Origin: a virus
IMG/VR virus record: IMGVR_UViG_3300024520_000050
Span: 1 to 64,000 of that record
Strand: one strand, 5' to 3'
Length of the DNA stretch: 64,000 nt
Positions 645-26,211 of this stretch are shown here, in pieces (position 1 is the first letter of the stretch; the number at the start of each line of letters is the position of its first letter). Under the pieces are notes generated by a model. It was not told the DNA's origin. It saw only the letters and a program-made list of their open reading frames with translations, and searched no databases. A program made the position numbers and the translations under genes.

Positions 645-736
645 TACATGTGCAATCCTCCATAGAATCTAGCTACCAGTTTCGACTTATATGACCTTGA
701 CATCACCTTACACATGCTATGAGGATTCGAACCTCT
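645..736 (-). ncRNA. T-arm-containing structured element (not a full tRNA)
   Basis: Minus strand GAGG-TTCGAAT-CCTC T-arm (721-735) followed by a stem ATAGCATGTGT/GCACATGTAT; no D or anticodon arm upstream. Confidence 0.35.
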
Positions 737-751
737 TTCTTCTTATATATC

Positions 752-1411
752 TTAATCTAATATCTTCCATTCACTAGGTATATCAATCCACTTCTTCTTA
801 TTAGTATTAGGATTCTCATATAATTGCTGTAACACCGCAATACATTCCCATTGACCGGCAACCATTGTACCAGGTCCAGTTTGTTCAAATGTACTACGTA
901 ATGTAGTAATATTACGTATTTCACTTTGACATACATAATCCTTTTTATTACCATTATTAAGTGTTAATGGACCAAATCCATTAATAACTTCTAATGCATT
1001 TTTAGGATCATTTAATACTTCAAGAATAGCTGGAATATGACTTGATTTAAGTTCTTTAAACTCAGCTAATTCTCTATACGTTAACCATTTATGATCACTG
1101 AATTCTCTATCACAAATAATCATACTAGCTTTCTCTTCATCACTAACTTCAACAAAATAATAATCAATACTATCTAATCCTAATTCTTTTATTCCTGATG
1201 AAAGTGATATAAGATGTATTATCTTTCTACATCCTATTTTTAGATTTAATTCTTCTTCAGTTTCTCTATGTAATGCATCAAGTAAAGTTTCACTTTCATC
1301 TTGTTTTCCACCAGCAAATACCCAATAATCAAACATTGGATGTGGTTTACCTATTTTACAGACTAACACTCTACGATATTTATCACAAGGAATTATACAT
1401 GCTACTTTCAT
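752..1411 (-). CDS. Nudix hydrolase with C-terminal extra domain
   Basis: Nudix box GGKQDESETLLDALHRETEEELNL; C-terminal VLQQLYE...WIDIP resembles ORF 3191-3406. Confidence 0.9.
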   Translation of the reverse strand: MKVACIIPCDKYRRVLVCKIGKPHPMFDYWVFAGGKQDESETLLDALHRETEEELNLKIGCRKIIHLISLSSGIKELGLDSIDYYFVEVSDEEKASMIICDREFSDHKWLTYRELAEFKELKSSHIPAILEVLNDPKNALEVINGFGPLTLNNGNKKDYVCQSEIRNITTLRSTFEQTGPGTMVAGQWECIAVLQQLYENPNTNKKKWIDIPSEWKILD

Positions 1412-1444
1412 ATTATTTTTATTTAGTTAAAAATACACCTTAAA

Positions 1445-1518
1445 ACCATTGCGATGGTAACTTCAATTGTGTTGTGTACGACAATGAGAGTCATAGCGGT
1501 CCGCTGATACTATCTCAT
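1445..1518. other. intergenic hairpin cluster
   Basis: ACCAT/ATGGT and ATGAGA...TCTCAT stems with an inner AGCGG/CCGCT stem. Confidence 0.45.
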
Positions 1519-1537
1519 CTGTACAAGTTTTTTCTCT

Positions 1538-2179
1538 TTATTTATCTTCTTCAATTTTATCTGCCCAAAAAGTTCCCCCTTCCATATTTTCTTTTTCACA
1601 TTCAATTAAGTGTCCTGCAATATCATCAATAACACTATTCCAATTCCTTAATTCTATAAAATCTAATTCATCTTCACCTCCTTCAGCTGCGGGAATACTA
1701 TAAGGCTCTTGAATCATACCATACATAGATATTGAATACAATATAGATCTAGCTCGATCTTTACAGTTTTTATAATTCTCTGCAATTAATTCTTCTTCGG
1801 TTTTAATTCGCCATACTCTTGTATAACATCCTTGCCCGCTATAGAGTGTGACAGCATAATTACCAAGTCTCCATGATTCACTAGCAAACATGTTATCTAA
1901 TCCTGGCTTATATTCTCCACCATATTTACGTGCATAACTTAAAAAGAAATCAAATAATCTTTCTTGTGGTTCTCTACCAGCTTTGCGTTCACGATCTTGA
2001 TATTCATCAGATTCATACTTTGCAATGATCTTATCAATTATTGAATCAATTTTAACTCCCCATTTCTCCCAATAATCTGTAATTCTATTATCATAAATCT
2101 TTTTACGTTTTGCATGAGATATGCTCCATTCTTCAGCATGTTTATCAATGTGTGCTTTCCAATCTTCTAGTTTCATCAT
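1538..2179 (-). CDS. hypothetical protein
   Basis: 213-aa ORF in co-oriented gene run. Confidence 0.8.
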   Translation of the reverse strand: MMKLEDWKAHIDKHAEEWSISHAKRKKIYDNRITDYWEKWGVKIDSIIDKIIAKYESDEYQDRERKAGREPQERLFDFFLSYARKYGGEYKPGLDNMFASESWRLGNYAVTLYSGQGCYTRVWRIKTEEELIAENYKNCKDRARSILYSISMYGMIQEPYSIPAAEGGEDELDFIELRNWNSVIDDIAGHLIECEKENMEGGTFWADKIEEDK

Positions 2180-2429
2180 CTTTAATTTCTTTTATCAATC
2201 CTTCCAATCGAGGAATATCCTCTTTTTTAAATATGACACAATCCCAGTGACCATAATCGGTACGATATCCACATATATATTTGATAGCATAAAATATTCG
2301 TTTAAATACACCAAAGTATCCATTTAAATGAACATGACAAATTAATTCATTCTCATCTTCGTCATATTGAAATATAACTTGATGTGATCTACAGTGACAC
2401 TCACATATAAATAATTCTTCTTTATTCAT
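2145..2429 (-). CDS. hypothetical protein (CxCxxH motif)
   Basis: ELFICECHCRSHQV; tight overlap with neighbours. Confidence 0.75.
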   Translation of the reverse strand: MNKEELFICECHCRSHQVIFQYDEDENELICHVHLNGYFGVFKRIFYAIKYICGYRTDYGHWDCVIFKKEDIPRLEGLIKEIKDDETRRLESTH

Positions 2430-2643
2430 CTCTAAATAATTTTAATGGTACTATGATTTCTCCTGCTTCATTAATGGTATTATCAAATTTATCCGCGTCA
2501 GTTTCTACATATGCTATGTCAGTTGATTCAATCATTGCATCTCCTGCAGATTGTTCTCCACCTCCAGCAAACCAATTTGTAAATGCATAAGCTTGCTTAA
2601 CAGTTTCAAAACCAGTAAATATTACTTTAATCTTTTTTTTCAT
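2422..2643 (-). CDS. hypothetical protein
   Basis: ORF in coupled operon. Confidence 0.7.
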   Translation of the reverse strand: MKKKIKVIFTGFETVKQAYAFTNWFAGGGEQSAGDAMIESTDIAYVETDADKFDNTINEAGEIIVPLKLFRDE

Positions 2644-2845
2644 CTTCTCTATATTTTAAATAAGTTTTAATAGAATTAATTGTAAAAAGAAAATTATCAT
2701 AAATTAAATCACTTTGTTCAGCAATAACTTCACTATCATCATTTCCTTTTTCATCCCATACTTCCATCATCTTTTTAAGCATTTGAATATGATCTACTGA
2801 AACGTGTCCCATGAAATCAACTTCTTTCTTCTTTTTCTTTGCCAT
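2627..2845 (-). CDS. hypothetical protein
   Basis: ORF in coupled operon. Confidence 0.7.
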   Translation of the reverse strand: MAKKKKKEVDFMGHVSVDHIQMLKKMMEVWDEKGNDDSEVIAEQSDLIYDNFLFTINSIKTYLKYREDEKKD

Positions 2846-2847
2846 AA

Positions 2848-3198
2848 TTAAGGTATCGTATTATATCCATCAATAAATAATTTATAGTGATTAAATTCAC
2901 TTTCAGTTATTACTTTAATTGTAACCCATGTTCTAGTGCAATTATAACCATCTTGCTCATGCATTTCATCTTCATTATGATACCAATCATACTCATCTAT
3001 ATCATAATCATCATTATTTTCAAAATATGATCTTGGTCCTAAAAACCCTTCAGCATATTCTTCACCTTCTACAAGTTGACTGTACTTTCCATCATCTTCA
3101 TCAATTACTACTTCTTTTATTATTTGCCCAGTATCTGGACTCCCATGACCATCATAAAATTCTTCTATAGTAGTCACAAGTAAACATCTTCTACTCAT
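2848..3198 (-). CDS. acidic hypothetical protein
   Basis: D/E-rich ORF in coupled operon. Confidence 0.75.
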   Translation of the reverse strand: MSRRCLLVTTIEEFYDGHGSPDTGQIIKEVVIDEDDGKYSQLVEGEEYAEGFLGPRSYFENNDDYDIDEYDWYHNEDEMHEQDGYNCTRTWVTIKVITESEFNHYKLFIDGYNTIP

Positions 3199-3406
3199 TT
3201 TTTTCTTCTTTTATCTCTTCAAATCCTGGTTCTTCTATTACTGGTACATCTTTCCATATAATCTTTCCTGTAACTACATCTTTCCATGCTTGTTGTAATA
3301 CTTGTACTTCTTGAGACCCAACAATCTTATGATTATGATATTTAGGTTCTTCACGTATTAACCAACGTACTGCAGTTTGACATTCCCATATATTTGATTC
3401 ATTCAT
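3191..3406 (-). CDS. small protein with VLQQ-W...W-DVP motif
   Basis: Similar to the C-terminal domain of the Nudix ORF. Confidence 0.75.
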   Translation of the reverse strand: MNESNIWECQTAVRWLIREEPKYHNHKIVGSQEVQVLQQAWKDVVTGKIIWKDVPVIEEPGFEEIKEEKNE

Positions 3407-3828
3407 ATCTCTTCAATTATTTTTAAATTAGTATTATCTAAACAATTATATTTTATATTTCGTTTTTTACAAAATAGTATAATCATTTCTTTGATTGCTG
3501 TAAATTTATATTCTAATCTATGCATTTCATTTCTAACATTTAAATTCTTTGTATAAGTAAAGTCAAAATTAGTTTTAACAATAGTTTCGGAATTTGGCCC
3601 GTCACCTTTCATTGTTCCTTGATTTTGCCATTCATGTTGTCTACCAATAAGTACTATATTACCATCTAATTCATATCTCCAATCTTGTACATTATACAAC
3701 CATAGTTTAGATGTACAGTTATGAGCTAATTTATCAACTGTCATTCCTTGACCAATAGCTGTAACAACTCCTAATTCATCATAAGGTCCAAACAATTGAT
3801 CTAGATTAGCTAACATTTTATCATTCAT
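3403..3828 (-). CDS. paralog family member (subgroup B)
   Basis: N-terminus NLDQLF..ELGVVTAIGQGM shared with 18523-18888 and 4117-4527. Confidence 0.75.
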   Translation of the reverse strand: MNDKMLANLDQLFGPYDELGVVTAIGQGMTVDKLAHNCTSKLWLYNVQDWRYELDGNIVLIGRQHEWQNQGTMKGDGPNSETIVKTNFDFTYTKNLNVRNEMHRLEYKFTAIKEMIILFCKKRNIKYNCLDNTNLKIIEEI

Positions 3829-4144
3829 CTGTTCTTTCTTTTATAAATTTAGTTATCATTTCTTCTATTCTATCAACAACCCAATCAACTCTTTCTTTAC
3901 TTCCTTCAGTTTTCCAAAAATAATGTGTTTTAGTAAAGTTAGTCACAAATGGTTTTTGAAATGTAACATAATAGTCACCTAATTCCCATTGCTTCTCATC
4001 CTCACTAATCAACCAATTATGTCGTAATACTAATATTAAAATAGCAGTCACCGTCAATCCTTGACCATGACACATCATTATAACTAAATCACTATGTCCA
4101 TGTTGACATAATTGTGTTAACTTAAGTTCATCTTCTGGGGCCAT
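3821..4144 (-). CDS. paralog family member (subgroup B, divergent)
   Basis: KLTQLCQHGHSDLVIMMCHGQGL N-terminus. Confidence 0.65.
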   Translation of the reverse strand: MAPEDELKLTQLCQHGHSDLVIMMCHGQGLTVTAILILVLRHNWLISEDEKQWELGDYYVTFQKPFVTNFTKTHYFWKTEGSKERVDWVVDRIEEMITKFIKERTDE

Positions 4145-4527
4145 GTGTTATATTTTATGTTACGATCATCTAAAAATCTTTCAATCATTAATGCGAACAT
4201 TTTACGTCTATGATATTTCATAGTTTTCTTTGATATCCTCCAATGATCAAGTATATTGATATCCTTTCGAAAGATTAAAGATTTATGCGATTTGTATATA
4301 TTATAATCACCTAATGAATAAGTTATAAAAACTGTTTTATTAACAAATCCAATTACATTATAATTATAAGAATGGTTATAATACCATCCTTCATTCATAC
4401 ATTTCTGAGCTAATTGGCTTGGTGTATATCCTTGACTAATTGCCATAATTATACCTAAAGCTCGTATTTCATCACATTCACTACCAAGAAACTGTTTTAA
4501 CTTCTTGGTTCTTTCTCCTTTATTCAT
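4117..4527 (-). CDS. paralog family member (subgroup B)
   Basis: KLKQFLGSECDEIRALGIIMAISQGY N-terminus. Confidence 0.75.
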   Translation of the reverse strand: MNKGERTKKLKQFLGSECDEIRALGIIMAISQGYTPSQLAQKCMNEGWYYNHSYNYNVIGFVNKTVFITYSLGDYNIYKSHKSLIFRKDINILDHWRISKKTMKYHRRKMFALMIERFLDDRNIKYNTWPQKMNLS

Positions 4528-5258
4528 CTTCCATCTTTAATTATTCCAAAATATCTATATTTAAGTAAATCTAAATAAATATCATTTGGTACGCCATAGT
4601 TTCCTATAGCCCACATATCATTTAATTCAATGATTTCTTGTGATTTATCAACCATTATAGCAATATCAATTGTATAACATTTATTCCATGATTCTTTATT
4701 ATAAAGTAAATTATAATCTCCAATAGTTTCTCCAATATAATCCATATTAGGAAACGCGTCAAATTCACCACTGTAATGCTTACAATCGATTATCTCATTA
4801 CCTTGTACATAAATCCTCCACTCACTTATAATCTCCTTCTTAAACGGCTTATAAGTCAATAATTCTGTATCACCTGGTACATCATCTAAACACTTATAAT
4901 GTGATTCATCCAATACAAAACCTGTGAATAATTTCAATTCTTTAGGTTTGATGAATAAGTTCTTTGTTGGTGTAATTTTTGCTTTAGCTTCATCAAGAGT
5001 CATTAATTTATGACTTCTACTTGGATTATTTGGAATCCATGGATCTACACCACGAATCTTCCATACTTCCTTCATGAATTCAACAGTACCTACGAATAAA
5101 CAATGAACAGTTCTCCAATCCCATAAGCCACTATCATCAGCAAGTTCATCATAAGTAATAAGTTTAAACTCTTGTTTAGTTTCAATAGCACCAAACATAG
5201 TACATGCTGCCTCATGATGATGAGGTCTTCCTTGTTTATCTGCTTGTATGTATATCAT
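4524..5258 (-). CDS. ATP-grasp protein (DUF4343/R2K-like)
   Basis: LFIKP, SEWRIYV, YTIDIA, IIELND motifs typical of ATP-grasp ligases. Confidence 0.75.
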   Translation of the reverse strand: MIYIQADKQGRPHHHEAACTMFGAIETKQEFKLITYDELADDSGLWDWRTVHCLFVGTVEFMKEVWKIRGVDPWIPNNPSRSHKLMTLDEAKAKITPTKNLFIKPKELKLFTGFVLDESHYKCLDDVPGDTELLTYKPFKKEIISEWRIYVQGNEIIDCKHYSGEFDAFPNMDYIGETIGDYNLLYNKESWNKCYTIDIAIMVDKSQEIIELNDMWAIGNYGVPNDIYLDLLKYRYFGIIKDGR

Positions 5259-5261
5259 AGT

Positions 5262-5576
5262 TTATTCTTTTAAGTATTTTATAAATGTTTCGATTGTATT
5301 GGATTTACTTACTGACCAATTTATATAGTTGGCTGAATCAGATCCACAACGATAACGAGCGATTAAGTTATGGGTATTTTTTGCAAAGCTCCATTTACCT
5401 AACGTCATAGTTTTAATCTCGTCGTATAAATAATGTTTTACACCAATGCAATCAAATAACTTTTCAATAATATCAACTTCATCATAACCATAATTCTCTG
5501 CTAATTTAAATCCAACTAATGCAGTATGTGGTGATGATAGAAGTTGATGAATACTATCTAATTCTTTATCTGTCAT
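5262..5576 (-). CDS. paralog family member (subgroup A)
   Basis: MTDKELDSIHQLLSS..GFKLAENYGY. Confidence 0.8.
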   Translation of the reverse strand: MTDKELDSIHQLLSSPHTALVGFKLAENYGYDEVDIIEKLFDCIGVKHYLYDEIKTMTLGKWSFAKNTHNLIARYRCGSDSANYINWSVSKSNTIETFIKYLKE

Positions 5577-5890
5577 AATTTTAATTTAAGCATTAACCAT
5601 TTAAATGCTGTTTCTTCAAATCTCCATGGTCCTTTTTGATGTTGATATGGATCACTTATAACAGTAATAGACCATTTATTCAATAAGGCCCTATTTCTCT
5701 TAATTAATGTCATATTATTAAATTTAAGTTTCCATGTATCTTCACAATTACATCTACTCTTCTTATCCCACAATAGTCTAATAAGATCCAGAGCATCATA
5801 CCCAAATCCTTCTGCTAATTTAAAACCTAGCTTAGAAGTATTTGGGTATGATATCAATTGGTGTATATTATCTAATTCTTTATCATTCAT
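5573..5890 (-). CDS. paralog family member (subgroup A)
   Basis: MNDKELDNIHQLISY..GFKLAEGFGY. Confidence 0.8.
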   Translation of the reverse strand: MNDKELDNIHQLISYPNTSKLGFKLAEGFGYDALDLIRLLWDKKSRCNCEDTWKLKFNNMTLIKRNRALLNKWSITVISDPYQHQKGPWRFEETAFKWLMLKLKL

Positions 5891-6383
5891 CTTCCCAAGT
5901 TATTAATGGACAAGCTTTATCTTTAATAGCTTTAAATCCTTCATATATAAATTCAGCAACAGAATTATCAGTAGATATTTTTGATATTCCAATTATTAAT
6001 CCGAATACTACTACAAATATACTCATTATAAGTCCTATTATAGTAAATAAAGACGTAATTCCTATTGTATATATTAATAATGCAAGACATGAAACAACTA
6101 TTAATATTATCAATGCAGGTAATATCTTCAACATTATAATATCCATAGTCTTTGTAGGTATTTTACTAAATAATTTACCTATTAATCTAAATATAGGAAG
6201 TATAGTATACTTTAAAATAGCTCCAATAGGAAGTGATATTGTAAATACCAACACCATCCAAAATAAAGGACAAAGTGATTTAAAATCGACTAATTTATCT
6301 TCATCTTTATTCTCAGGTGTTGTATAAAATTTATCAAGCCATTGTATATAACGACCCATAAATGATTTCTTATTAATTATCAT
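5883..6383 (-). CDS. membrane protein
   Basis: Three hydrophobic stretches; SLCPLFW and KACPLITW motifs. Confidence 0.8.
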   Translation of the reverse strand: MIINKKSFMGRYIQWLDKFYTTPENKDEDKLVDFKSLCPLFWMVLVFTISLPIGAILKYTILPIFRLIGKLFSKIPTKTMDIIMLKILPALIILIVVSCLALLIYTIGITSLFTIIGLIMSIFVVVFGLIIGISKISTDNSVAEFIYEGFKAIKDKACPLITWEDE

Positions 6384-6385
6384 AA

Positions 6386-6901: not shown

Positions 6902-7056
6902 ATCATTAAGTTTAAATTTTTATGATGAACTAAGCACATTTCTGCTTGTTCTTTATTCCAACATCTCCCAATAACTTTCTTTTTACAGAATGGACACTCC
7001 TTCTTAGGTGGGCCTGCTATTGGTAGTTTGGGTGGTTTAGTATCTTTAGGTGACAT
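6898..7056 (-). CDS. 52-aa Cys-rich peptide (not in ORF track)
   Basis: Manual translation MSPKDTKPPKLPIAGPPKKECPFCKKKVIGRCWNKEQAEMCLVHHKNLNLMI; stop overlaps next start. Confidence 0.55.
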   Translation of the reverse strand: MSPKDTKPPKLPIAGPPKKECPFCKKKVIGRCWNKEQAEMCLVHHKNLNLMI

Positions 7057-7073
7057 AATTAAGTTTTAAAATA

Positions 7074-7188
7074 ACAAAGCTTAGTAGGATTTGAACCTAC
7101 AGTAATCTCGGACCAGTACTCCTGCTAACTAAATCAGGTAGACGTCTAGATACATACCCGCAATCAGTCTAATTGCTATAAGCTTTGT
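7074..7188 (-). tRNA. tRNA-like RNA with expanded central domain (115 nt)
   Basis: ACAAAGCTTA/TAAGCTTTGT closing stem, GCAATT/GATTGC D-like stem, GTAGG-TTCAAAT-CCTAC T-arm; about 59-nt insert in place of a normal anticodon/variable arm. Confidence 0.55.
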
Positions 7189-7223
7189 CAATGAAAGATT
7201 CATATTGATCTCACATGTTTATA

Positions 7224-8282
7224 TTATTTAAATTTTCTAAAGAACATGTCTTTAACTTTCAAAGAAATACTCTTATTTACTTGCTTTGGTTCTAATCCAT
7301 TATCAGCCATGACATCACCTTCTTCAAGTGTAATATCACTAATCATCCAACGAATAAATTCACCAAATTCTTTTCCCATGAATGGTTGTTCGGCACCGAA
7401 GATTTCTTTGATACCTTGATCAAATCTATTCTGTGTTACAGCATATGTTACGAACTTATTAATGCTTTCTAATACTTCTGTATCAACTGCAGCAATTGTC
7501 TTCACATTACTTACACTGTGCTTCTCGCCTTTCGTTTTGAAACGATACACTTGATTATTATAACTTACAGTCCATACTAAACCTTCACCTAATCCACCAT
7601 CAATACCTTGTTGTTTACACACAGGACACTCATCTTCAACCTGTTGAGTTAATTCTACAAACTTATTCTGTGCATATTCAGGTTGGGCAAAGTCAACTGT
7701 TACTTTAAAAGTAGGAAAGTCAAAGATATTAAATAATCTTTTACTTTCATTACCTGGAATCTTAGCAACATCTTCATCACTTAACCAGTAAGACTCACCT
7801 GTTGAATTATCCTCTGATGCTTTAGTTGGATCTGTTACTTTCACACTAAACATGTAGAAAGACTTCGGTAATCCTTGAAGACCAACGTTCTTTTGTATGT
7901 TCCCGCCAGCCCACTCGCCATAAATAGAAATAACCCAATAATCTGGAATGTTATATGCTTCACGAATAAAGAAGAATCTTTTATTCCATTCTTCTTTAAC
8001 AGAATCAGCCCAAAATGCAAATCCAGCATTATCTTTAAGTGGTGTTACAATATTCTTACGTGATTGAAAGTAAATATTACCTTCTCCATCTTGACATACA
8101 GCACCATTAGTACCATGTAATTTAATAGTTCCAGTAAATTCAAGTACTGGTTTTGGAAGTGAACCATCATAAATAGGATCACCATTTTCATCCAAGCCCA
8201 CGAATGTAGCTTGCATACAAATATCACGGATAATGTTCCGGAATTGTGGGATTTTAGGATATGCTGAATGTTTACTTTTCAT
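7224..8282 (-). CDS. rnl2: RNA ligase, Rnl2 family
   Basis: Nucleotidyltransferase motifs KLHGTN (I), IYGEWAG (III), FYMFSV (IIIa), EGLV (IV), FKTKG (V). Confidence 0.85.
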   Translation of the reverse strand: MKSKHSAYPKIPQFRNIIRDICMQATFVGLDENGDPIYDGSLPKPVLEFTGTIKLHGTNGAVCQDGEGNIYFQSRKNIVTPLKDNAGFAFWADSVKEEWNKRFFFIREAYNIPDYWVISIYGEWAGGNIQKNVGLQGLPKSFYMFSVKVTDPTKASEDNSTGESYWLSDEDVAKIPGNESKRLFNIFDFPTFKVTVDFAQPEYAQNKFVELTQQVEDECPVCKQQGIDGGLGEGLVWTVSYNNQVYRFKTKGEKHSVSNVKTIAAVDTEVLESINKFVTYAVTQNRFDQGIKEIFGAEQPFMGKEFGEFIRWMISDITLEEGDVMADNGLEPKQVNKSISLKVKDMFFRKFK

Positions 8283-9327: not shown

Positions 9328-10287
9328 CTACGCTTTCCGAATAACGTAAGACGCTAACTCTTTGAGTAACGTACTACGCATTGCTTCAATTGCAGCATTA
9401 TATTGTAAAGTATGTGCATTATGCTCTTTGACCGCTGCCGACCAAGTAGATAATTCATTTTGATATTCTTCATCATTCTTACGCTGTAGTTCTTCAGCTG
9501 TATCTTTAATCAATTTAAATTGACTGTTTCTATTCTTTTGATAAACAGTATATTTTGATGTTATACTTTCATCAACTTCTAACAAATTAACACATTCATC
9601 TAAATCATATACTAATTTATCATGAACTAAGATAAGTTTAGTATGAGTAGATGAAGTACCACGATCTACAATTTCTTCAGCCATAGAAAGTTTACGTAAG
9701 AATGAAGCTTTCTCTTGATTACATTGTTTTCCATAAACAGATGCTCTAGCTTCCATTTGAAGTAACGATTTGATACGTTTATAACCAATAGCTTCAATTA
9801 ATACTGGACCCATAGCTTGAATCATTGATTCAGCTTTATCCATAGCACAAAACTGGTGAATACTACCTTTAATTAAAGCAGATTTAAGTTGAGGTTGTAC
9901 TGGATACTCTCCTCCTTCAAACTTAATATCATAAGCTTGACTAATCTCATCAATAGATAAAGCTTTGATTTCTTTCTTTAAAGTATCACGATAATTAATA
10001 GCCATTCCATACCATGCTGATTCTTCATTACGATTAGCAATATCAGGTAGAACATCAAAATCTCCAGGCTCTAATTTATATGCTATAGGACGCGATGTAG
10101 ACCCTTTTGCCCCAACGGGTTGATAGATAGTCTCATACAATGATGCATTGTTAATACGTTGCAACAAAGGTTGATTCTTATTCTTGTGTGCTTCTTTAAT
10201 ACGTTGTACTTCAGATGAAGATAAACCTTTAGATTTATCTGTTGAATAAATGTCTACTACAAGTGGACGAATTTTAGCTAATTTCAT
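9328..10287 (-). CDS. hypothetical protein with C-terminal coiled coil
   Basis: 319-aa ORF. Confidence 0.85.
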   Translation of the reverse strand: MKLAKIRPLVVDIYSTDKSKGLSSSEVQRIKEAHKNKNQPLLQRINNASLYETIYQPVGAKGSTSRPIAYKLEPGDFDVLPDIANRNEESAWYGMAINYRDTLKKEIKALSIDEISQAYDIKFEGGEYPVQPQLKSALIKGSIHQFCAMDKAESMIQAMGPVLIEAIGYKRIKSLLQMEARASVYGKQCNQEKASFLRKLSMAEEIVDRGTSSTHTKLILVHDKLVYDLDECVNLLEVDESITSKYTVYQKNRNSQFKLIKDTAEELQRKNDEEYQNELSTWSAAVKEHNAHTLQYNAAIEAMRSTLLKELASYVIRKA

Positions 10288-10328: not shown

Positions 10329-10420
10329 TGATTCTGGTAGGATTTGCACCTACATCTTCTGCTTACTCATAACCTTCTTCGAGCGGGCGGGGCTAGTGCT
10401 CTACTTGAGCTACAGAATCA
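10329..10420 (-). tRNA. tRNA-like RNA with aberrant anticodon arm (92 nt)
   Basis: TGATTCTG/CAGAATCA acceptor-like stem, GCTC-AAGTA-GAGC D-arm, GTAGG-TGCAAAT-CCTAC T-arm; loop CCCGCCC lacks U33 and purine 37. Confidence 0.6.
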
Positions 10421-14037: not shown

Positions 14038-14324
14038 AATTCTTCACCGTTTAATTCAGACTTACTCATTTGCATATCATTAATATATGGTGTAAAACCA
14101 GCAAGAAGATTATTACTAATTAATTCACCTAATGTGGGATAATGAATTCCCATATCTTCATCAGTATCAATATTATAATAACAAATTCCTTTATTACTAA
14201 AATGTACACCACATTTTATTCCTGAATGTTCGTGAATAGCACTAACATTAACATCATCTTCTTTAAGATTACAAATTTTACCGTTTTTTAATACTAACAT
14301 AGTTTTATTTATTAAAGTGTTCAT
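14034..14324 (-). CDS. hypothetical protein
   Basis: ORF in coupled operon. Confidence 0.65.
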   Translation of the reverse strand: MNTLINKTMLVLKNGKICNLKEDDVNVSAIHEHSGIKCGVHFSNKGICYYNIDTDEDMGIHYPTLGELISNNLLAGFTPYINDMQMSKSELNGEEL

Positions 14325-15093
14325 TCAATTCAAATAATATCATACTAACATCAGCTCCATAAAATCCAGAACAGTTAATACAATTTAACTCTACAATCTT
14401 CCATCCATCACTAGTTAAACATACATCCATTACAAATGCTTCTGCTATTGTTGAATGTGTATCAACCATTTCTTGTGCAAACTTCTCTGCATCATATTCA
14501 TGTGGACCTAAATCCATCCCTTTATATCTTGCTGAAGTAATTACTTTACCATCAATAATCCAACATCGTACTTCACGATAGATAGTTTTAACAGATGCTA
14601 CTTGAATTTCCGTCCATCTACGTATTCTTGATCTACTTTCATAATGATTAACACTTTTAACAAATTCATTCCATCTATCAAGTGTAAATACTTGTCCAGT
14701 AAATATCTTACTATCTTCGCAAGGTCTAATAAACTTTTCACCAACAAAATCTAATTTATCAGTAAATTTAACAATATCAGAATCCCAATTTAATAGATTA
14801 TCTGTATAATAATCTTTATAAATAGAATAGTCATGTTCACGATTCATCATTGAACCTGGTTTCCAATCATATGAATCTGCATTATCTGCCATTTTATTAG
14901 CACCAAAAGCAAAGATATCTTCTCTTTCTGTTTGAAAGTATGTATTATTTTCATTATCATCTTTGATAAAAAGTGAGCTTGTTCTAGGTCTAGTATGAAC
15001 AATTTGATATTCATATTCTAACTTATTCATAGCATCAACTAATGCATTAAAATTCTCTGTTCTAAATGTATTTTTCTGTATTAAGTATAGCAT
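14305..15093 (-). CDS. ATP-grasp protein (DUF4343/R2K-like), second copy
   Basis: KFIRP, REVRCWII, FVMDVC, KIVELNCINCSGFY. Confidence 0.8.
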   Translation of the reverse strand: MLYLIQKNTFRTENFNALVDAMNKLEYEYQIVHTRPRTSSLFIKDDNENNTYFQTEREDIFAFGANKMADNADSYDWKPGSMMNREHDYSIYKDYYTDNLLNWDSDIVKFTDKLDFVGEKFIRPCEDSKIFTGQVFTLDRWNEFVKSVNHYESRSRIRRWTEIQVASVKTIYREVRCWIIDGKVITSARYKGMDLGPHEYDAEKFAQEMVDTHSTIAEAFVMDVCLTSDGWKIVELNCINCSGFYGADVSMILFELNEHFNK

Positions 15094-17064: not shown

Positions 17065-17112
17065 GATATGTAAATTAAGTTTTGTTTAAAAATAAGATTC
17101 TAAATAAAAATA

Positions 17113-17300
17113 ATGTTTCACATCACTAACCTGCTACGGCTAACAATAACAAATTGGTATGAATGAGTAGTGTCAATTTATTGCACTATATATCTCATTA
17201 TGATAACGATTTGCGACACGAATTTGTGCCTTGAGCTCCGTTATTATCACTCGTTTAGTGATAACCTAACTACCGTATTGTAGTTAGAGGTCTAAGCCAT
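17113..17300 (-). ncRNA. candidate structured RNA (hairpin array)
   Basis: Stems AATGAG/CTCATT, TTATCAC/GTGATAA, CTAACTAC/GTAGTTAG; no ORF. Confidence 0.4.
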
Positions 17301-17309
17301 TACAGCCAA

Positions 17310-17483: not shown

Positions 17484-17546
17484 AATTTATTTTATTTCAT
17501 TTAATTGTTCTAATTCTTGTTTATCCATAGTTATTAATTTAAAAAT

Positions 17547-17729
17547 AAAGACATCACTTTAGCCGGGAACTCCATCCTATCTGTCACTAAAGTTGTTAAT
17601 AAATTACTCCCGCACTTGGTATGATAGAAGTTGCTTATGGTACAAGCAGTACCACTTCTATACTAGGCATGTCGTTTACGGATGAGAAAGCTTCTTCATC
17701 TTGCCGATAATTTATCAACTGATGTCCTT
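17547..17729 (-). ncRNA. candidate 183-nt multi-stem ncRNA
   Basis: Closing stem AAAGACATCA/TGATGTCCTT (mismatch becomes G-U on minus strand); inner stems ACTTTAG/CTAAAGT, TAGAAGT/ACTTCTA, GATGA/TCATC. Confidence 0.55.
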
Positions 17730-17848
17730 ATGCTAAAATCATCTAACTAAGTTAAATGACTTCGTTTCTCCTTCAACACATGGTTGATGAGATAAAATGT
17801 AAAGCCCACATCAAATGGTACGAACAAAATCTTACTTTACATTAAATA

Positions 17849-17934
17849 AACACGTTCTTCAGATGTATTATTGCTTGGATGTCAGTTCGACTAACACCAC
17901 TCGTTGCCCCATCCTTGGGTAATTCAAACGTGTT
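17849..17934. ncRNA. candidate structured RNA
   Basis: Perfect AACACGTT/AACGTGTT closing stem, GC-richer interior. Confidence 0.4.
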
Positions 17935-17944
17935 ATATCAAAAA

Positions 17945-18037
17945 AATTAAATCAATCACTGCTTTTAGACGCACTTAGTCTTCTCTAGCGACGGTACTCA
18001 GCAATGGTTTGAGTAGACTCCTCTTCATGATTTAATT
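17945..18037. ncRNA. candidate structured RNA
   Basis: Perfect 10-bp AATTAAATCA/TGATTTAATT closure; inner TACTCA/TGAGTA hairpin. Confidence 0.45.
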
Positions 18038-18043
18038 TATATT

Positions 18044-18201
18044 ATTCCCTGTCTTGCAATTGAATGATATTCGGAATTTACTCTAGAATAGTCCTATCAT
18101 CTGAACTCAAGTGGGTAGCGCCCAAGCATTGCTTTCCGCCTGATGAGTAATCTCAATCTCGGTGTCATGATACTTCAAAACTTGTTAGTTCAGCAGGGAA
18201 T
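18044..18201. ncRNA. candidate structured RNA
   Basis: ATTCCCTG/CAGGGAAT closure; GC-richer interior; no ORF. Confidence 0.45.
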
Positions 18202-18205
18202 TATA

Positions 18206-20941: not shown

Positions 20942-20987
20942 ATCTTTATGTTGTTAAAATGTCCGTCGCCGAACAAAGTTAAACCAA

Positions 20988-21365
20988 TTATTTATGTTTC
21001 ATGCAACGAGTTGACATCCAACCTGAAGTATTTAGTTCTCCCTCATCTCCACATTCATCACATATTTTATAACTATCTTCTTCTGCTTTAGATATTAACT
21101 CATGTACTTCATCAGTAGCTGAATTAATATAAAATCTAAGTCCACCAAACTTCTCTTTACATTGACATAATTGTTTATCCCAATCTAATTTGATTAACTC
21201 TTCGATTAATTCTTTGACTAATCCTAACCATCCGTTACCGATTTCGAAGTAGTATCTGGACATTATTAGGTCTCTATCCGGATAAAATCCGTTGACTAGA
21301 CCGTTTATTGACTGAAGGAATGTGTTAAACTCATCATCAGTCATGTAGTATTTATTTGTATTCAT
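20988..21365 (-). CDS. conserved phage protein (KEKFGGLRFY family)
   Basis: GWLGLV..QCKEKFGGLRFYI..ICDECG motif, widespread in phages. Confidence 0.85.
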   Translation of the reverse strand: MNTNKYYMTDDEFNTFLQSINGLVNGFYPDRDLIMSRYYFEIGNGWLGLVKELIEELIKLDWDKQLCQCKEKFGGLRFYINSATDEVHELISKAEEDSYKICDECGDEGELNTSGWMSTRCMKHK

Positions 21366-21421
21366 ATCTCTTATTTGTTAGTATTCATTTCAACCAAAGC
21401 ATAACGAAGTTAAACCTAAAA

Positions 21422-21742
21422 TTATAAAATGCTATCTCTTATTAAATATCTTACAAGAGCTTCAAACACATGACTTTGCGGCCATGGAATATCTTCAGTA
21501 CCATCTCTATAACCTATAGGCCAAATTTTCCAAGCGTGCCCATTAATATATTTATGTCGTAGTTTCATTAAAGTGTACCTCTTAAAATTAATATGGCGTC
21601 CTCTTACATTTAACTTACACCAAATCAACTTAAGTAATTCTACATTAGTTAAGCCATGTCCTTCTGCAATCTTAAATGCTACAGATGATGTATGTTGATA
21701 ACATAATAACTGATGTAGATTTATAAGTTCTTGTTTAGTCAT
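21422..21742 (-). CDS. paralog family member (subgroup A)
   Basis: MTKQELINLHQLLCY..VAFKIAEGHGL; start reset to Met at 21742 by paralog alignment. Confidence 0.8.
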   Translation of the reverse strand: MTKQELINLHQLLCYQHTSSVAFKIAEGHGLTNVELLKLIWCKLNVRGRHINFKRYTLMKLRHKYINGHAWKIWPIGYRDGTEDIPWPQSHVFEALVRYLIRDSIL

Positions 21743-21814
21743 AGTAATTAATTTTAATGTTAAACCTATATAAAAACGGCAGTAGGTCTCCACCTACCAC
21801 CTATACTCAAACTA

Positions 21815-22351
21815 TTATATTCTTATTACAGATATACATTGCATAACAAGTCCATTTCGGAATGTCACATCATGATATGTAATTATTGTTTCACCTGGTT
21901 CATAATGTACTCCACAACCTCGAAGTATATTAATAAATCTTTGTTCTGGAACTTCTTGACAATGAGCTTCATCAATCATTATTCCTTCTAATGTTGTCAT
22001 ATCAAACCAATTATCACCATAAACTAAACTCATATCATCAGGACGAGTGATCCCAAAGTTATTCATGACACGATATTTCTTATCTTGCATGATAATATCT
22101 GCTAATTCAGCTTTATCTTCACTTAATAATGAACTTATGAATCGTGTATTAGTACCATTTGTAATAGAAGGAATATAACTTTCGTTAATCCAAGCAGTCA
22201 ATTTAATAGCATATACTTCCATATCATTAATAACTCCTTCCTTCCACATAAATTCATACACTCTATTCTCTTCATTCAATTGACTAGTAATACCATGTAT
22301 AACAGCATCAGCTTCTGCATTTGCTTGTTTTATTTTATCTTGGTAGTTCAT
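21815..22351 (-). CDS. hypothetical protein
   Basis: 178-aa ORF with TACTCAAA-type leader. Confidence 0.75.
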   Translation of the reverse strand: MNYQDKIKQANAEADAVIHGITSQLNEENRVYEFMWKEGVINDMEVYAIKLTAWINESYIPSITNGTNTRFISSLLSEDKAELADIIMQDKKYRVMNNFGITRPDDMSLVYGDNWFDMTTLEGIMIDEAHCQEVPEQRFINILRGCGVHYEPGETIITYHDVTFRNGLVMQCISVIRI

Positions 22352-22384
22352 TTTGATTAAGTTTTGAGTTTAAGTTAATAAAAA

Positions 22385-22530
22385 ATGCCTCGAAGATTTC
22401 TCTCTTTTATTCACAAGTTCCAGATCAACGGACTCAATGCGGAGGCATACCTATCCTTGTCAAGGAATACAATTAAGTATATGACTAGATTCGTTACGAG
22501 TGTTGACTTACTCTTGAGTAGTTAGTAGAT
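22385..22530. ncRNA. candidate structured intergenic RNA
   Basis: ATGCCTC/GAGGCAT stem plus TTCCTTG-like, CTCGT-like and TACTC/GAGTA hairpins. Confidence 0.35.
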
Positions 22531-22536
22531 ATTATA

Positions 22537-23367
22537 TTAATAACCAATTTGAGGTGGTATTAAATCTGTTGTTTTACCACACTTTGGACAAATATGTCGA
22601 TATCCTTTTCCTTGAGGAATATGAATAAATGCTGGTGGATTATGTTCGATATGAGTACATTTTTGCTTAGTATTAGGTAAATCAAAGAATCCACCGTTAT
22701 TGTTGGCAGTAACATTATCATGTTGGACTCTGACTACATTCTTTACATCAGTTGGTTTCAAATGAGTAAAGTCTAATATTTTATTCAAGTCTACATTATA
22801 TGCTTTCATCTTACGGAACATTATTCCACTTAATGATTCGTTCTCTGGTTGAAATGTATCACCTCCATCTACTAATTTCAATGAGTCTAATATTGATAAC
22901 ATGCATTGACCCATATTGTTTATACTATTCTTTTTCATTTGTATTATTTTACATTCTAGATTCGTCAAGACTTCATTATTTCTTATAGATGAATAAAGAA
23001 CCATATCAGAATCAATTTCTCCTTTACAATATTCTTTAAGAAAACCTTCTGGTATTGTTGGTAAGCCACATGACTCATCAGTTGTTGCAATCACTTTACT
23101 CAAATGATGCCAACTACCCATTAAATCAGATACACATACAACAATATTACGAGATTCATCATGATAACAATAATCTCCTTTTTTAATCTTACCTTCAGAT
23201 AATACATACAAATGTTGAGGTGTAGCTTCATTTGCATAAGTATTCTCTTGCAATGTTTCTATTACGTTCCACAAGCCAATAAATCCTCTTGCTGACTTGA
23301 ATAAATTACCAGATTTCAATGCTTCATTACTTGGAAGCATAACTATTTTACATTTTTTAAGTTTCAT
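22537..23367 (-). CDS. multi-domain hypothetical protein
   Basis: N-terminal IVMLP..QHLYVLS..IKKGD..KVIATTD domain; C-terminal CxH..CPKC zinc-like motif. Confidence 0.8.
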   Translation of the reverse strand: MKLKKCKIVMLPSNEALKSGNLFKSARGFIGLWNVIETLQENTYANEATPQHLYVLSEGKIKKGDYCYHDESRNIVVCVSDLMGSWHHLSKVIATTDESCGLPTIPEGFLKEYCKGEIDSDMVLYSSIRNNEVLTNLECKIIQMKKNSINNMGQCMLSILDSLKLVDGGDTFQPENESLSGIMFRKMKAYNVDLNKILDFTHLKPTDVKNVVRVQHDNVTANNNGGFFDLPNTKQKCTHIEHNPPAFIHIPQGKGYRHICPKCGKTTDLIPPQIGY

Positions 23368-23393
23368 AATTTAAGTTTTGAGTATTATTTAAA

Positions 23394-23489
23394 AAACACG
23401 CTAATTACTTTCCTATCTTAAGCCAAAGCTTCAAGTTCCATAATTATTAGTTTGACATCACAGGTTACCCTCCATCAAATTACGTGTTT
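23394..23489. ncRNA. candidate structured intergenic RNA
   Basis: AAACACG-C-TAATT / AATTA-CGTGTTT closure spanning the whole intergenic gap. Confidence 0.35.
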
Positions 23490-23492
23490 ATG

Positions 23493-23930
23493 TTATTTAG
23501 TCCATATTCCAACAGGATATGTGATCCCTGAAGAAACATGTTCTGTTGTTTTCTTAGGTGAATTATTAATAAAATCAGTATTACTAATATAATTAATAAA
23601 TTCATCTTCATTATCAAAGTTGAATCCATCCATAGAATGAACTCTAAATGACATATTACAACCAATACTATAATGTTGAACACTAAATCCATTAGATTTT
23701 TCTTCTCCGTGTCTTACATAATATGCTTGATATGGTAAACAATTATTATATTTTGGTATACATACTTTAAATTCAATATTACCTTCATAATTTCTACCAC
23801 CTAATTCGAATAAACAATCGTGCTCATTCTTTACTGGAATGAAAATATATCCTTGTTCTTCATTACTTTTGATTAATTCAACAGCTTCCAAAATGGATAT
23901 ATTTTCATTTAATAATTTAAGTAATTTCAT
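23493..23930 (-). CDS. hypothetical protein
   Basis: 145-aa ORF. Confidence 0.7.
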   Translation of the reverse strand: MKLLKLLNENISILEAVELIKSNEEQGYIFIPVKNEHDCLFELGGRNYEGNIEFKVCIPKYNNCLPYQAYYVRHGEEKSNGFSVQHYSIGCNMSFRVHSMDGFNFDNEDEFINYISNTDFINNSPKKTTEHVSSGITYPVGIWTK

Positions 23931-23942
23931 AATTTAAGTATT

Positions 23943-24086
23943 TTAATCATTATCATTCCAATCAACTTGTCGTGCTCCATTAAGAAGTACAACAGCAATA
24001 ACAACAATGACAATCACAGCTGCTATGTTATTATAGTAACTGACTGTGTCGTAAATAGCCGAATTGGCTAATAATATCTTATTCAT
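23943..24086 (-). CDS. 47-aa single-TM peptide (not in ORF track)
   Basis: MNKILLANSAIYDTVSYYNIAAVIVIVVIAVVLLNGARQVDWNDND; TACTCAAA leader. Confidence 0.6.
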   Translation of the reverse strand: MNKILLANSAIYDTVSYYNNIAAVIVIVVIAVVLLNGARQVDWNDND

Positions 24087-24106
24087 AATAATTTAATTTT
24101 TGAGTA

Positions 24107-24409
24107 TTAATTAATTTTTATTTTATGACCTTTTTCTGGATTAGGATGGTCCGTCTTGTAAACAGTACGAACCCATACTTTTCCATCAATTTCTTCAACA
24201 TAAGTATCAAGACTCATTTCAAAACAAGCCCAATTTACTTCAATATCAGATTCTGGTAAATAACCATACAACACATAAAATGCAAGGTATAAATGATTAT
24301 TTCCTTCCATTGTACATGGAATAGGAAAGTATCTACGCGGACCATTTTTATAGTCACGTATTTCTGATAGACTTAGTAAAGCGTCTATATATTCTGTATC
24401 TATAATCAT
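24107..24409 (-). CDS. hypothetical protein
   Basis: ORF with TACTCAAA leader. Confidence 0.7.
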   Translation of the reverse strand: MIIDTEYIDALLSLSEIRDYKNGPRRYFPIPCTMEGNNHLYLAFYVLYGYLPESDIEVNWACFEMSLDTYVEEIDGKVWVRTVYKTDHPNPEKGHKIKIN

Positions 24410-24590
24410 AATGTTTAATTTTAAGTTTGAGTAAATAAAAATAAGAGGAATAGAACCATCACCTCTTTATAACGTACTCAAGCTAGTTATTCATGCACCA
24501 TGCCTTACGTCTTTATCATCAATGAAAATTACACTGATTAATGTAATTGGACGTCATTGGAGTCAAGATAGTGACAGTTTCTTAATTTTG

Positions 24591-24663
24591 TGAACAGGTG
24601 CGGATTCGAACCGCAGTCTGATGGTTAGCCAACCATTCCTCTGACCAACTGAGGTACCTGTTT
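24591..24663 (-). tRNA. tRNA with 6-nt anticodon loop (UGGCUA); identity undetermined
   Basis: Cloverleaf AAACAGG/CCTGTTC, CCTC-AGTTGGTCA-GAGG, ATGGT-TGGCTA-ACCAT, TGCGG-TTCGAAT-CCGCA; A1-C72 mismatch; no encoded CCA. Confidence 0.8.
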
Positions 24664-24710
24664 CCATATAATACACGGTTGAAATGAGACCTCGTGTTAT
24701 TCTCATTACC

Positions 24711-24902
24711 TTATCTATAATGATTAGGTTTGTATTTGCTTCTACGACCAGAATTGAAATAATGTGTCGTAATTTGCTTTGTATAATTCCAGCTAGGGAT
24801 TTCAGCTCTATCACTTAATGATTGATTAGAACCACTAAATAATGAAGCAAATGAAGTTAATAATGCAAATAAAAATACGAATATTCTTTTGATATTTTTC
24901 AT
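24711..24902 (-). CDS. small protein with hydrophobic N-terminus
   Basis: MKNIKRIFVFLFALLTSFA signal-like. Confidence 0.55.
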   Translation of the reverse strand: MKNIKRIFVFLFALLTSFASLFSGSNQSLSDRAEIPSWNYTKQITTHYFNSGRRSKYKPNHYR

Positions 24903-24962
24903 TTTAATAAAGTTTTGGTATTATATTTAATTAATAAAGTTTCTTAATAAAATAAATGTATT

Positions 24963-25127
24963 CTAACTTCCTGCATCAGCACCAACCAGAACCTCTTGAT
25001 TTAATACAGCTCTATTCTGCACTGCAGGTTGGCTATAATCATTAAGTTCAAATTTGTTAGCGAGTTGACTTCTTACTTTTTTGTCTTCAACATATTGAAG
25101 ACGTTGTTTTTTTCCTGTAAATTTCAT
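24963..25127 (-). CDS. 54-aa protein (not in ORF track)
   Basis: MKFTGKKQRLQYVEDKKVRSQLANKFELNDYSQPAVQNRAVLNQEVLVGADAGS with A-rich leader. Confidence 0.5.
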   Translation of the reverse strand: MKFTGKKQRLQYVEDKKVRSQLANKFELNDYSQPAVQNRAVLNQEVLVGADAGS

Positions 25128-25168
25128 AATAATTAATTTAAGTGGTTTAAAATAATAAAGTTATAAGA

Positions 25169-25618
25169 TTAGAATCGTACATTATTTGATGCACGATGTA
25201 CTTTGACTGCCTTACGTTTAATCTCATTACGTAAAACATTTACTGCCTGATCAAAATCATTAGTTGAATATACATATCCATGCTGAGCACGAATTCTTAT
25301 GTAATCCAATTTGTTTGATTCTACATTAACATATCTGTTAACCATGGCAATCTTACCTACATAAGTAGTTAATTGAAGACCATCTTCAACATTGTCAGCC
25401 ATGAAGACTTCAGATTCATCAGTAATCAATCCCCATTCCCAATCAGTTGTGGCATCAGCATACAGTATATAATCACCATCATATTTGACAGCCATTAGAC
25501 CTTTTTCCATGTGAGGAGCACCATTATCAGGTACAATCACATGATATTCAGTTGTATCAATTTGTGCAGATACATTTAATGATAATAATACGAATAAAAA
25601 TAATAATAAAGTTTTCAT
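25169..25618 (-). CDS. secreted protein
   Basis: Signal peptide MKTLLLFLFVLLSLNVSAQ. Confidence 0.8.
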   Translation of the reverse strand: MKTLLLFLFVLLSLNVSAQIDTTEYHVIVPDNGAPHMEKGLMAVKYDGDYILYADATTDWEWGLITDESEVFMADNVEDGLQLTTYVGKIAMVNRYVNVESNKLDYIRIRAQHGYVYSTNDFDQAVNVLRNEIKRKAVKVHRASNNVRF

Positions 25619-25661
25619 TGTTTAATAAGTTTAAAGTGTTAATAATAAAGTTCTTTGAATA

Positions 25662-26005
25662 AATAAATTGAACGCTGCTGCATAGCCACTATGGACTAGT
25701 CAATTATTATAATGCTACGGAGTTACCATCTACACATACAACCTAATTAAGGTTTACGCTGACTGTCATCACGGCTTCAATTTATTAACTGTTATACAAA
25801 GAAGTGCTTGAGTTTTAGGAACATTAGCCTCTCTTCTTTGGTAAATATAATGGTTGTCGTTACCAACGGTAGCTCTCCACTATTATGCGTCTTCACGAGG
25901 CATAATAATTTCAATTACTAGAGTACTACAGTAGCTCCATACATTCGGCTTTCATCTATATCCGAAGGAGGTGATGCTCAAGCTATCCACGTGCTGTAAT
26001 AATTA
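25662..26005 (-). ncRNA. cluster of 2-3 candidate structured RNAs
   Basis: 11-bp AATAAATTGAA/TTCAATTTATT closure (25662-25786); CAAAGAAG/CTTCTTTG, ATTATGC/GCATAAT, TTCGG/CCGAA, TACAG/CTGTA stems; no ORF. Confidence 0.45.
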
Positions 26006-26030
26006 AAACATGATTATTAGTCTTATTGAC

Positions 26031-26211
26031 GTTGCTAATTTGGGATTCGAACCCTGCCCGATCCATTTCTGGTAGGAACATTCCAATCATCTAATGTTGG
26101 TAAAGCACTAATCTTACATTAGTCTCGTGGTCTTTTTGATCTATATCCCACTGTACTGATTGTTTTAATTATTCATCAATGATGTTTCAAGGCTATTATA
26201 GCACTGACAAC
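26031..26211 (-). ncRNA. tRNA-like-domain RNA (181 nt) with large insertion
   Basis: GGG-TTCGAAT-CCC T-arm at 3' end; imperfect GTTGTCAGT/ATTAGCAAC closure; GCTA-TAA-TAGC D-like hairpin. Confidence 0.45.

Follow-up and report, generated by a model that had tools for sequence, protein, structure and literature searches.

Bacteriophage T4 makes two stable RNAs, species 1 (rnaC) and species 2 (rnaD), whose function is still unknown (PMC9697503). In rnaC, a canonical T arm (CCGGG-UUCGAAU-CCCGG) leads into a 3' strand that resembles an acceptor strand and forms a stem with the 5' end, and long hairpins replace the decoding part of a transfer RNA (tRNA). Phage tRNA genes are now mainly seen as replacements for host tRNAs destroyed by nucleases, a view that intact, non-decoding tRNA shapes do not fit; the puzzle is an old one, posed by the two T4 RNAs for about fifty years and still unanswered. 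Here we analyze five dispersed T-arm hairpins, E1 to E5, in a virus known from seawater metagenomes (IMG/VR record IMGVR_UViG_3300024520_000050; 178,400 bp, rated complete by CheckV). All five lie in the window, by which we mean the first 64 kb of the record. The interpretation that we favor, tentatively and at slightly below even probability, is that E2, E3 and E4 are genes for non-decoding, tRNA-shaped small RNAs akin to T4 rnaC, and that E1 and E5 are fragments or modules.

Several other systems bear comparison with these elements. The YrlA-type Y RNAs of bacteria and phages (RF02553; PMC4201824) are non-decoding mimics of the acceptor, T and D parts of a tRNA that act by binding protein. 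They are circularly permuted (T arm, closed acceptor, D arm), have a Ro60-binding helix that contains GNCGAAN(0-1)G, and are usually encoded beside a Ro60 gene. The "enigmatic introns" of the Lak megaphages, large phages of Bacteroidota, are non-decoding tRNA-like modules that interrupt an outer tRNA within its anticodon loop (Devoto et al. 2019, PMC6784885). Some phage tRNAs are resistant to host nucleases: the T5 tRNAs for Lys, Thr and Asn in the case of PARIS, and a phage tRNA-Thr in the case of P2 OLD, decode and replace the cleaved host tRNA (PMC11464382, PMC12409363, PMC12445682). Finally, integration and recombination leave tRNA gene fragments, which often consist of a T arm and a 3' end (van der Gulik et al. 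2023, PMC9897764).

We found that the five T-arm motifs are real, but that they are not all one kind of element. The motif GGTTCRAATCC, allowing at most one mismatch, is present eight times in the window compared to 1.13 expected, an approximately 7-fold enrichment, and none of 100 shuffles reached eight. The five hairpins to which an earlier note on this DNA had drawn attention (721-735 in E1, 7084-7100 in E2, 10337-10353 in E3, 24599-24615 in E4 and 26042-26054 in E5) are exactly where it placed them, all on the minus strand and all between open reading frames (ORFs). When the elements were scored with the Rfam tRNA model (RF00005; gathering score, 29 bits), E4 (24591-24663, minus strand) reached 47.3 bits (E 5.6e-07) and E3 (10329-10419, minus strand) reached 44.7 bits (E 2.9e-06). 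For E2 (7075-7187, minus strand) only the T arm was matched, at 14.3 bits, and there was no match for E1 or E5. Short stretches were searched with laxer Infernal filters, and this setting recovered a group I intron in a tRNA-Leu gene of the same genome (59.1 bits) that had been missed by a 33-kb scan; the blanks for E1, E2 and E5 therefore carry weight. ARAGORN called just E3 and E4 among the five.

E2, E3 and E4 have all of their acceptor, D and T pairs formed, bar an A1.C72 mismatch in E4, and the damage is confined to the anticodon domain. A decoding-tRNA anticodon arm, with a 5-bp stem, a 7-nucleotide (nt) loop, U33 and a purine at position 37, is absent from all five elements. The earlier note had credited four elements with acceptor- and D-like stems; we find them in these three and not in E1 or E5. 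Likewise, its abnormal anticodon domains are confirmed as a 6-nt loop in E4, a C-rich loop in E3 and an insert of about 58 nt in E2, but not as a cloverleaf with an insert of about 130 nt in E5. That none of the elements encodes CCA is true but uninformative, because none of the 23 regular tRNAs of the genome encodes it either. What follows the discriminator base is C74, which is present in all 23 regular tRNAs and in E3 and E4, on a strand that is poor in C. More generally, all 25 ARAGORN calls in the genome have C74 followed by A/T-rich sequence, with the full CCA in none, a uniform 3'-end signature.

E4 is a 73-nt cloverleaf with a canonical tertiary core. The D, anticodon and T stems are perfect, the core bases U8, A14, G15:C48, G18G19, G53, U54U55C56, A58 and C61 are present, the variable loop is 5 nt long and contains G46, and the T loop is UUCGAAU. 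In its paired stems and tertiary-core bases, E4 thus has the full body of a decoding tRNA. At its end, the A.C mismatch at pair 1:72 is followed by A73 and C74. The anticodon arm (AUGGU-UGGCUA-ACCAU) has a 5-bp stem and the 6-nt loop UGGCUA, and RNAfold closes it further to a 6-bp stem with a GGCU tetraloop; ARAGORN labels the gene "tRNA-???" with a 2-nt anticodon. Insertion of a single base into UGGCUA never gives a canonical loop, in which both U33 and a purine at 37 would be present, and a normal tRNA therefore cannot be reached from E4 by one slip. Decoding of a quadruplet, for which opening of the U31-A39 pair would give an 8-nt loop, is in our estimate highly improbable.

There is no clear paralogue of E4 in the genome. 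A search of 185,579 genomes found its D arm a single time, in a tRNA-Ile(UAU) from Firmicutes, and this match gives no useful clue to ancestry. A Thg1-like gene (tRNA-His guanylyltransferase / 3'-5' polymerase family; genome positions 152629-153078, 94.7 bits) is located in the tRNA region, and its predicted product could act on 5' ends such as the mismatched end of E4. Regarding a theta (hepatitis delta virus-like) ribozyme beside the elements (PMC10879173), no G-rich fold was visible 3' of E4, where no motif scan was made.

E3 is a tRNA-shaped RNA of 91 nt whose acceptor, D and T stems (7, 4 and 5 bp, respectively) are all perfect. The D loop has only 5 nt, with one G, and the T loop reads UGCAAAU, with G at position 55. 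The 43-nt middle domain opens with the C-rich sequence CCCGCCC and provides no usable anticodon; whether the loop is read as CCCGCCC or as a 29-nt loop, there is no U33. The 5' flank, body and 3' flank of E3 align to the phage tRNA-Lys(UUU) gene (alignment at genome positions 166531-166612, E 9e-9), which is located at 166572-166800 and is the sole Lys tRNA called in the genome.

Comparison of E3 with tRNA-Lys indicated which parts of the RNA have been maintained. Over the 16 acceptor, D and T pairs there were three double compensatory changes, no single changes and no unpaired positions; the double changes are C3:G70 to U:A, G6:C67 to U:A, and U13:A22 to C:G. When the anticodon stem is kept in register, three of its five pairs are unpaired in E3, and the D, T and variable loops all differ between the two genes. 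Were six changes scattered at random over 32 stem bases, they would make up three complementary pairs with a probability of approximately 2e-5. If, alternatively, all six changes occurred on the tRNA-Lys lineage, then the 32 stem bases of E3 would have been static while its loops diverged, which is also improbable. With changes on either lineage, the helices of the tRNA body have been constrained and the decoding arm has not. Because the stems stay paired through compensatory changes while the anticodon stem is broken, E3 is best described as a maintained tRNA body. The selection argument is based on this one pair of paralogues together with the location of the damage in E4.

A third copy provides a point of reference. 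At genome positions 176551-176615 there is a clearly decayed copy of the E3 acceptor 3' strand and of the AT-rich motif next to it, with the T arm destroyed, and this remnant shows how real decay looks in this genome. The tRNA-like end and the leader downstream of it appear to duplicate as one module.

The parent gene is itself unusual. The anticodon loop of tRNA-Lys is split by a 155-nt insert that starts with a tRNA-like body (Rfam, 35.4 bits), and excision of the insert would restore the loop CUUUUAA. E2, E3 and E4 might similarly be interrupted real tRNAs, the extra sequence being an intron that splices itself, or that is removed by nucleases and an Rnl2-like ligase, to yield decoding tRNAs. 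The tRNA-Lys insert is in keeping with this, as are a true group I intron in the tRNA-Leu(UAA) gene of the same genome (59 bits) and the tRNA-shaped introns reported from Lak megaphages (PMC6784885). We nevertheless judge it highly improbable. No excision from E2 or E3 leaves a 5-bp stem and a 7-nt loop with U33, there is no U among the first 10 loop bases of E3, and E4 has no insert at all. The inserts span 22-58 nt, less than a group I intron requires, and the search that detects the tRNA-Leu control gave no group I intron match in the regions of E2, E3 or E5. The maturation by splicing or ligation that had been proposed for the elements is thus not borne out.

E2 is a tRNA-like RNA of about 113 nt that was recovered by a custom stem scan. 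Its perfect acceptor stem, AAGCTTA/TAAGCTT, measures 7 bp (9 bp including the flanks) and is followed by UA. The D hairpin has 7 bp and a 3-nt loop that does not contain GG, the T arm (GTAGG-TTCAAAT-CCTAC) is likewise perfect, and where the anticodon arm and variable loop would be, there is an irregular hairpin of about 58 nt.

As the earlier note had said, an RNA ligase gene ends 36 nt before E2. This gene (7224-8282, minus strand; 352 amino acids (aa)) matches PF09414 (E 2.5e-13) and, over its full length, the "RNA ligase" family PHROG 548 (E 6e-59). Its best NCBIfam match is to TIGR02307 (Rnl2; positions 26-316 of 326), at 27.5 bits compared to a cut-off of 197, and its best match in the PDB is T4 Rnl2 (2hvq, E 0.003). 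The product is therefore best regarded as a putative, distant Rnl2-like ligase. We examined gene order at 80 IMG/VR and 80 metagenome loci that encode homologues of the ligase (identity ≤51%), and a tRNA-like element was directly downstream of the ligase at none of the 160; the T-arm-like matches just downstream of the homologues fall inside coding sequence. A long-armed tRNA-like RNA within 4 kb of a ligase homologue was found at only four loci (L057 and L075-077), which represent two distinct phages. Because the region around E2 holds about 30 tRNA or tRNA-like genes, one tRNA-like neighbor of the ligase is unremarkable, and the functional link between the two that had been drawn from their proximity is not supported by this comparison.

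E1 and E5 are different. E1, a 4-bp T-loop hairpin (GAGG-TTCGAAT-CCTC), immediately follows the stop codon of a NUDIX gene. It is followed by a second hairpin (644-720, minus strand; fold z -1.18), in which a 9-bp stem with one bulge (ATAGCATGTG / CACATGTAT) encloses 58 nt, and there is no D arm after this stem. E5 is a 3-bp T-loop hairpin (GGG-TTCGAAT-CCC) within a moderately structured, ORF-free stretch of 593 nt (25619-26211, minus strand; fold z -1.68), which has no Rfam match (25550-26300) and no similar phage DNA. In the lax short-stretch searches there was no tRNA match for E1, and neither a tRNA nor a group I intron was matched in 25550-26300 for E5. E1 and E5 match no donor tRNA of the genome. 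They are not tRNA mimics but solitary T-loop hairpins that were left behind by tRNA-like genes or that belong to longer non-coding RNAs as modules, and the proposal that all five elements make up one system finds no support in them. The description of the elements as non-decoding tRNA mimics fits E2, E3 and E4, with evidence of selection for E3, and does not extend to these two.

Other arrangements of E1 and E5 were considered and rejected. A cloverleaf with an insert of about 130 nt can be drawn for E5 only with a T stem of 3 bp, a spacer of 4 nt and mismatch in the acceptor stem, and the E5 region as a group I intron gave no match. For either element as a permuted, split, 8/4 or 9/3 "allo-tRNA" (PMC5389517), no complementary 5' acceptor strand could be seen by eye. 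Two further stretches between co-directional genes, 17484-18205 and 17065-17309, contain no ORF of at least 50 aa, and even the short-stretch search of them gave no match to Rfam; counting 25619-26211, there are three non-coding islands that lack an explanation.

The first of the rivals in our ranking is that the elements are decaying pseudo-tRNAs, that is, functionless leftovers of duplicated or disrupted tRNA genes whose stems are intact because the leftovers are young. It accommodates the bare T hairpins of E1 and E5, the decayed copy of the E3 3' end, the interruption of the gene from which E3 is derived, the failure of E2 to fit the tRNA model or to be unusually stable, and the fact that no element is conserved in any other public sequence searched. 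It has more difficulty with E3, which differs from tRNA-Lys at 6 of 32 stem bases with every pair kept while the loops and anticodon stem diverged, and with E4, in which the changes are limited to 6-7 loop bases of 73 nt and the core is otherwise perfect. C74 has been kept in both. Even E1 and E5 retain the exact 11-mer GGTTCGAATCC, with nothing else tRNA-like around them and no donor tRNA that matches their stems. We consider decay unlikely as an explanation for the set, although a young-pseudogene reading is plausible for E1, E5 and perhaps E2.

From the anatomy of E2, E3 and E4 we infer that these mimics are transcribed, processed, stable and active in trans. The acceptor/T minihelix, which is gripped by tRNA-handling proteins, is retained in all three, and the D/T elbow in E4 as well, and a closed hairpin or a longer structured domain stands in place of the anticodon arm. 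Host RNase P and the enzymes that process 3' ends might cut the mimics from polycistronic transcripts, and the host CCA-adding enzyme might complete them, as it would have to do for the 23 real tRNAs of the phage. Stable tRNA look-alikes made in this way could then occupy one or more tRNA-binding proteins in trans.

The position of the elements is easily reconciled with a second rival, in which the folds act in cis as punctuation: they would be RNase P or RNase Z sites, or stabilizers of 3' ends, on the long leftward transcripts, and any small RNA would be a by-product. Punctuation of this kind would yield separately regulated mRNAs, and each element does stand alone between co-directional ORFs, outside the tRNA array. 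Moreover, E3, tRNA-Lys and the remnant at 176.6 kb each have the same AT-rich motif on their downstream side, shortly before the next gene, and a processing signal requires just the acceptor/T minihelix, which is exactly the conserved part. It does not require the full D/T elbow and variable-loop core that E4 has kept, which go beyond the needs of RNase P, and such an element is missing from most of the approximately 50 other gaps between genes in 1-28 kb. We rate punctuation as quite unlikely, second to decay among the rivals.

The third rival is the function that the earlier note had proposed, in which the elements serve in trans as decoys or uncleavable substrates for host anticodon nucleases (PrrC, RloC, PARIS AriB) and Rnl2 contributes repair. 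The origin of E3 is of interest here, tRNA-Lys(UUU) being the classic target of PrrC. The same tRNA is a target of PARIS (PMC11464382, PMC12409363). The genome also encodes tRNA-repair-type proteins, namely the Rnl2-like ligase and the Thg1-like enzyme, and the surroundings are full of small orphan genes typical of host-takeover regions. PrrC, however, recognizes the anticodon arm, and P2 OLD acts on features of the anticodon stem-loop, all of which these RNAs have lost; for P2 OLD this is documented in PMC12445682. Against PARIS and P2 OLD, the counters that have been documented are not decoys but resistant tRNAs that decode (PMC11464382, PMC12409363, PMC12445682). In addition, the adjacency of Rnl2 is not conserved, and we found in the genome no AAA_33-type kinase/phosphatase that would prepare nuclease-cut ends for an Rnl2-type ligase. 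The decoy proposal gains a little from the tRNA-Lys origin of E3, loses more on the known counters and on recognition of the anticodon arm, and is mechanistically awkward; we regard it as very doubtful, ahead only of splicing among the four rivals.

A broader variant, in which E3, with E4 and E2, would act in trans as decoys or inhibitors that titrate host immune effectors directed at tRNA, is in our estimate distinctly improbable too, if a little less so than decoys for anticodon nucleases. Candidate effectors are tRNA nucleases that recognize the tRNA body and toxins that modify the acceptor end.

Several results weigh against E2, E3 and E4 being functional mimics. E2 is no more stable than shuffled sequences (fold z -0.46), fails the Rfam tRNA model, and has neither G18G19 nor C74. 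The decayed copy of the E3 3' end at 176551-176615 shows that tRNA-like sequences do duplicate and decay in this genome, and the argument from E3 concerns constraint on helices and not function in trans. No phage-encoded partner was identified: Ro60/TROVE, RtcB and a CCA-adding enzyme were not found in the genome, and for Ro60/TROVE (PF05731) the control genomes did match while nothing did in the 178 kb. There was also no orthologue of any of the five elements in the collections searched, and covariation between genomes thus has no basis.

These searches for orthologues were made in several ways. The E4 and E5 regions gave no match by megablast or blastn among GenBank phages, and a neighboring protein of 149 aa gave none in IMG/VR. 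A pattern scan of IMG/VR and JGI metagenomes for the E4 anticodon hairpin, and scans of IMG/VR for the D-arm/T-arm patterns of E3 and E2, found none. A 319-aa neighbor found only itself among 5.8 billion proteins; the contigs that bear it are from the same phage (99.86-100% identity) and have no substitution in E2 or E3. The data sets listed for the phage included none of RNA, and four DNA runs yielded same-strain contigs only, with no difference at any element among the differences listed. The gene for the 319-aa protein (9328-10287), an orphan, contains a variable patch: contig L115, from another sample, has 19 substitutions relative to the phage, all inside 64 nt at 9415-9478, and is identical over the remaining 13.3 kb. 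The patch is hypervariable or recombined.

The genome provides a setting for E2, E3 and E4 that extends beyond the window. A near-identical contig crosses window position 1 into genome positions 177586-178257, and the record is therefore circular or circularly permuted. The 23 regular tRNA genes are all on the minus strand, at genome positions 150-174 kb, and across the junction of the wrapped record they run directly into an array of small minus-strand ORFs at window positions 1-27 kb. E2, E3 and E4 are within the resulting leftward region of tRNA genes and small ORFs, which covers approximately 55 kb from genome position 150 kb through the end of the record to window position 27 kb. Two paralogous genes for R2K-clade ATP-grasp proteins (PF14243/PF18299; window positions 4524-5258 and 14305-15093) are also found in this region. 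The nearest relatives found for the phage are distant: for a 714-aa DUF8224 protein, identity was 58.6% with an uncultured 462-kb phage (LR756500.1) and 52-53% with Cellulophaga phages phi17:2 and phi4:1. The Cellulophaga phages point to a marine bacterium of the Flavobacteriia as the probable host.

Other unusual tRNA-like RNAs are present outside the window. One of them (genome positions 167390-167486, 33 bits) has an interrupted anticodon helix of 12 bp, and adjoining it there is a permuted YrlA-like match (167542-167661) that is weak, at 29 bits compared to a gathering score of 69. The group I intron of tRNA-Leu(UAA) (genome positions 156033-156338; L081:10033-10338) is 220 nt long and lies in the anticodon (Intron_gpI, 59.1 bits), at a position that we take to be at or beside the U34/A35 site of cyanobacterial and plastid trnL introns. 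RNAs of comparable design were found in LR756500.1 and in two unrelated phage contigs. In LR756500.1, odd tRNA-like elements are present at L117:6241-6381 and L118:7967-8053, and two of its elements have the 5' motif CTCAAAGTNATTACAGAA in common; the same phage encodes a tRNA with a CUA anticodon (record positions 110653-110720), a possible amber suppressor.

What is new here is that one mimic has a traceable origin, E3 being derived from tRNA-Lys, with apparent selection on the acceptor, D and T helices and not on the anticodon arm. If the mimics do bind a defined tRNA-handling or immune protein, they would represent a new layer of the conflict between phage and host, and as decoys for immune effectors they would form an RNA-based class of anti-defense distinct from resistant replacement tRNAs. 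If they are merely processing signals or young pseudogenes, then low-scoring phage "tRNAs" should not be counted as decoders.

Each of the described systems resembles part of this locus. E1, E5 and the 176.6-kb remnant are like the tRNA gene fragments, although E1 and E5 have no donor tRNA here, and E3 and E4, unlike fragments, are complete bodies with signs of constraint. The resistant phage tRNAs also have an anticodon arm that differs from that of the host, but they decode, whereas E2, E3 and E4 have no usable anticodon. The Lak introns have a counterpart in the tRNA-Lys insert, and E3 is a paralogue of the gene that contains it; unlike those introns, E2, E3 and E4 are flanked by ORF ends and leaders and have no outer exons. 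With the YrlA RNAs, the three elements share the mimicry of acceptor, T and D parts, and E1 shares a T arm followed by a closed stem but has no D arm. In contrast to YrlA, E2, E3 and E4 have their parts in the normal order and their acceptor ends open, TROVE has no match in the genome, and the genome-wide search gave no YrlA match in the window, the only good one being at 167542-167661. The closest likeness is to T4 rnaC, which is also encoded by a phage in a tRNA-gene region and whose layout is that of E2; this likeness is one of architecture. Whereas rnaC and rnaD abut the T4 tRNA array, E2, E3 and E4 stand alone among ORFs, and E3 and E4, with a complete D arm, are much nearer to a true cloverleaf than rnaC.

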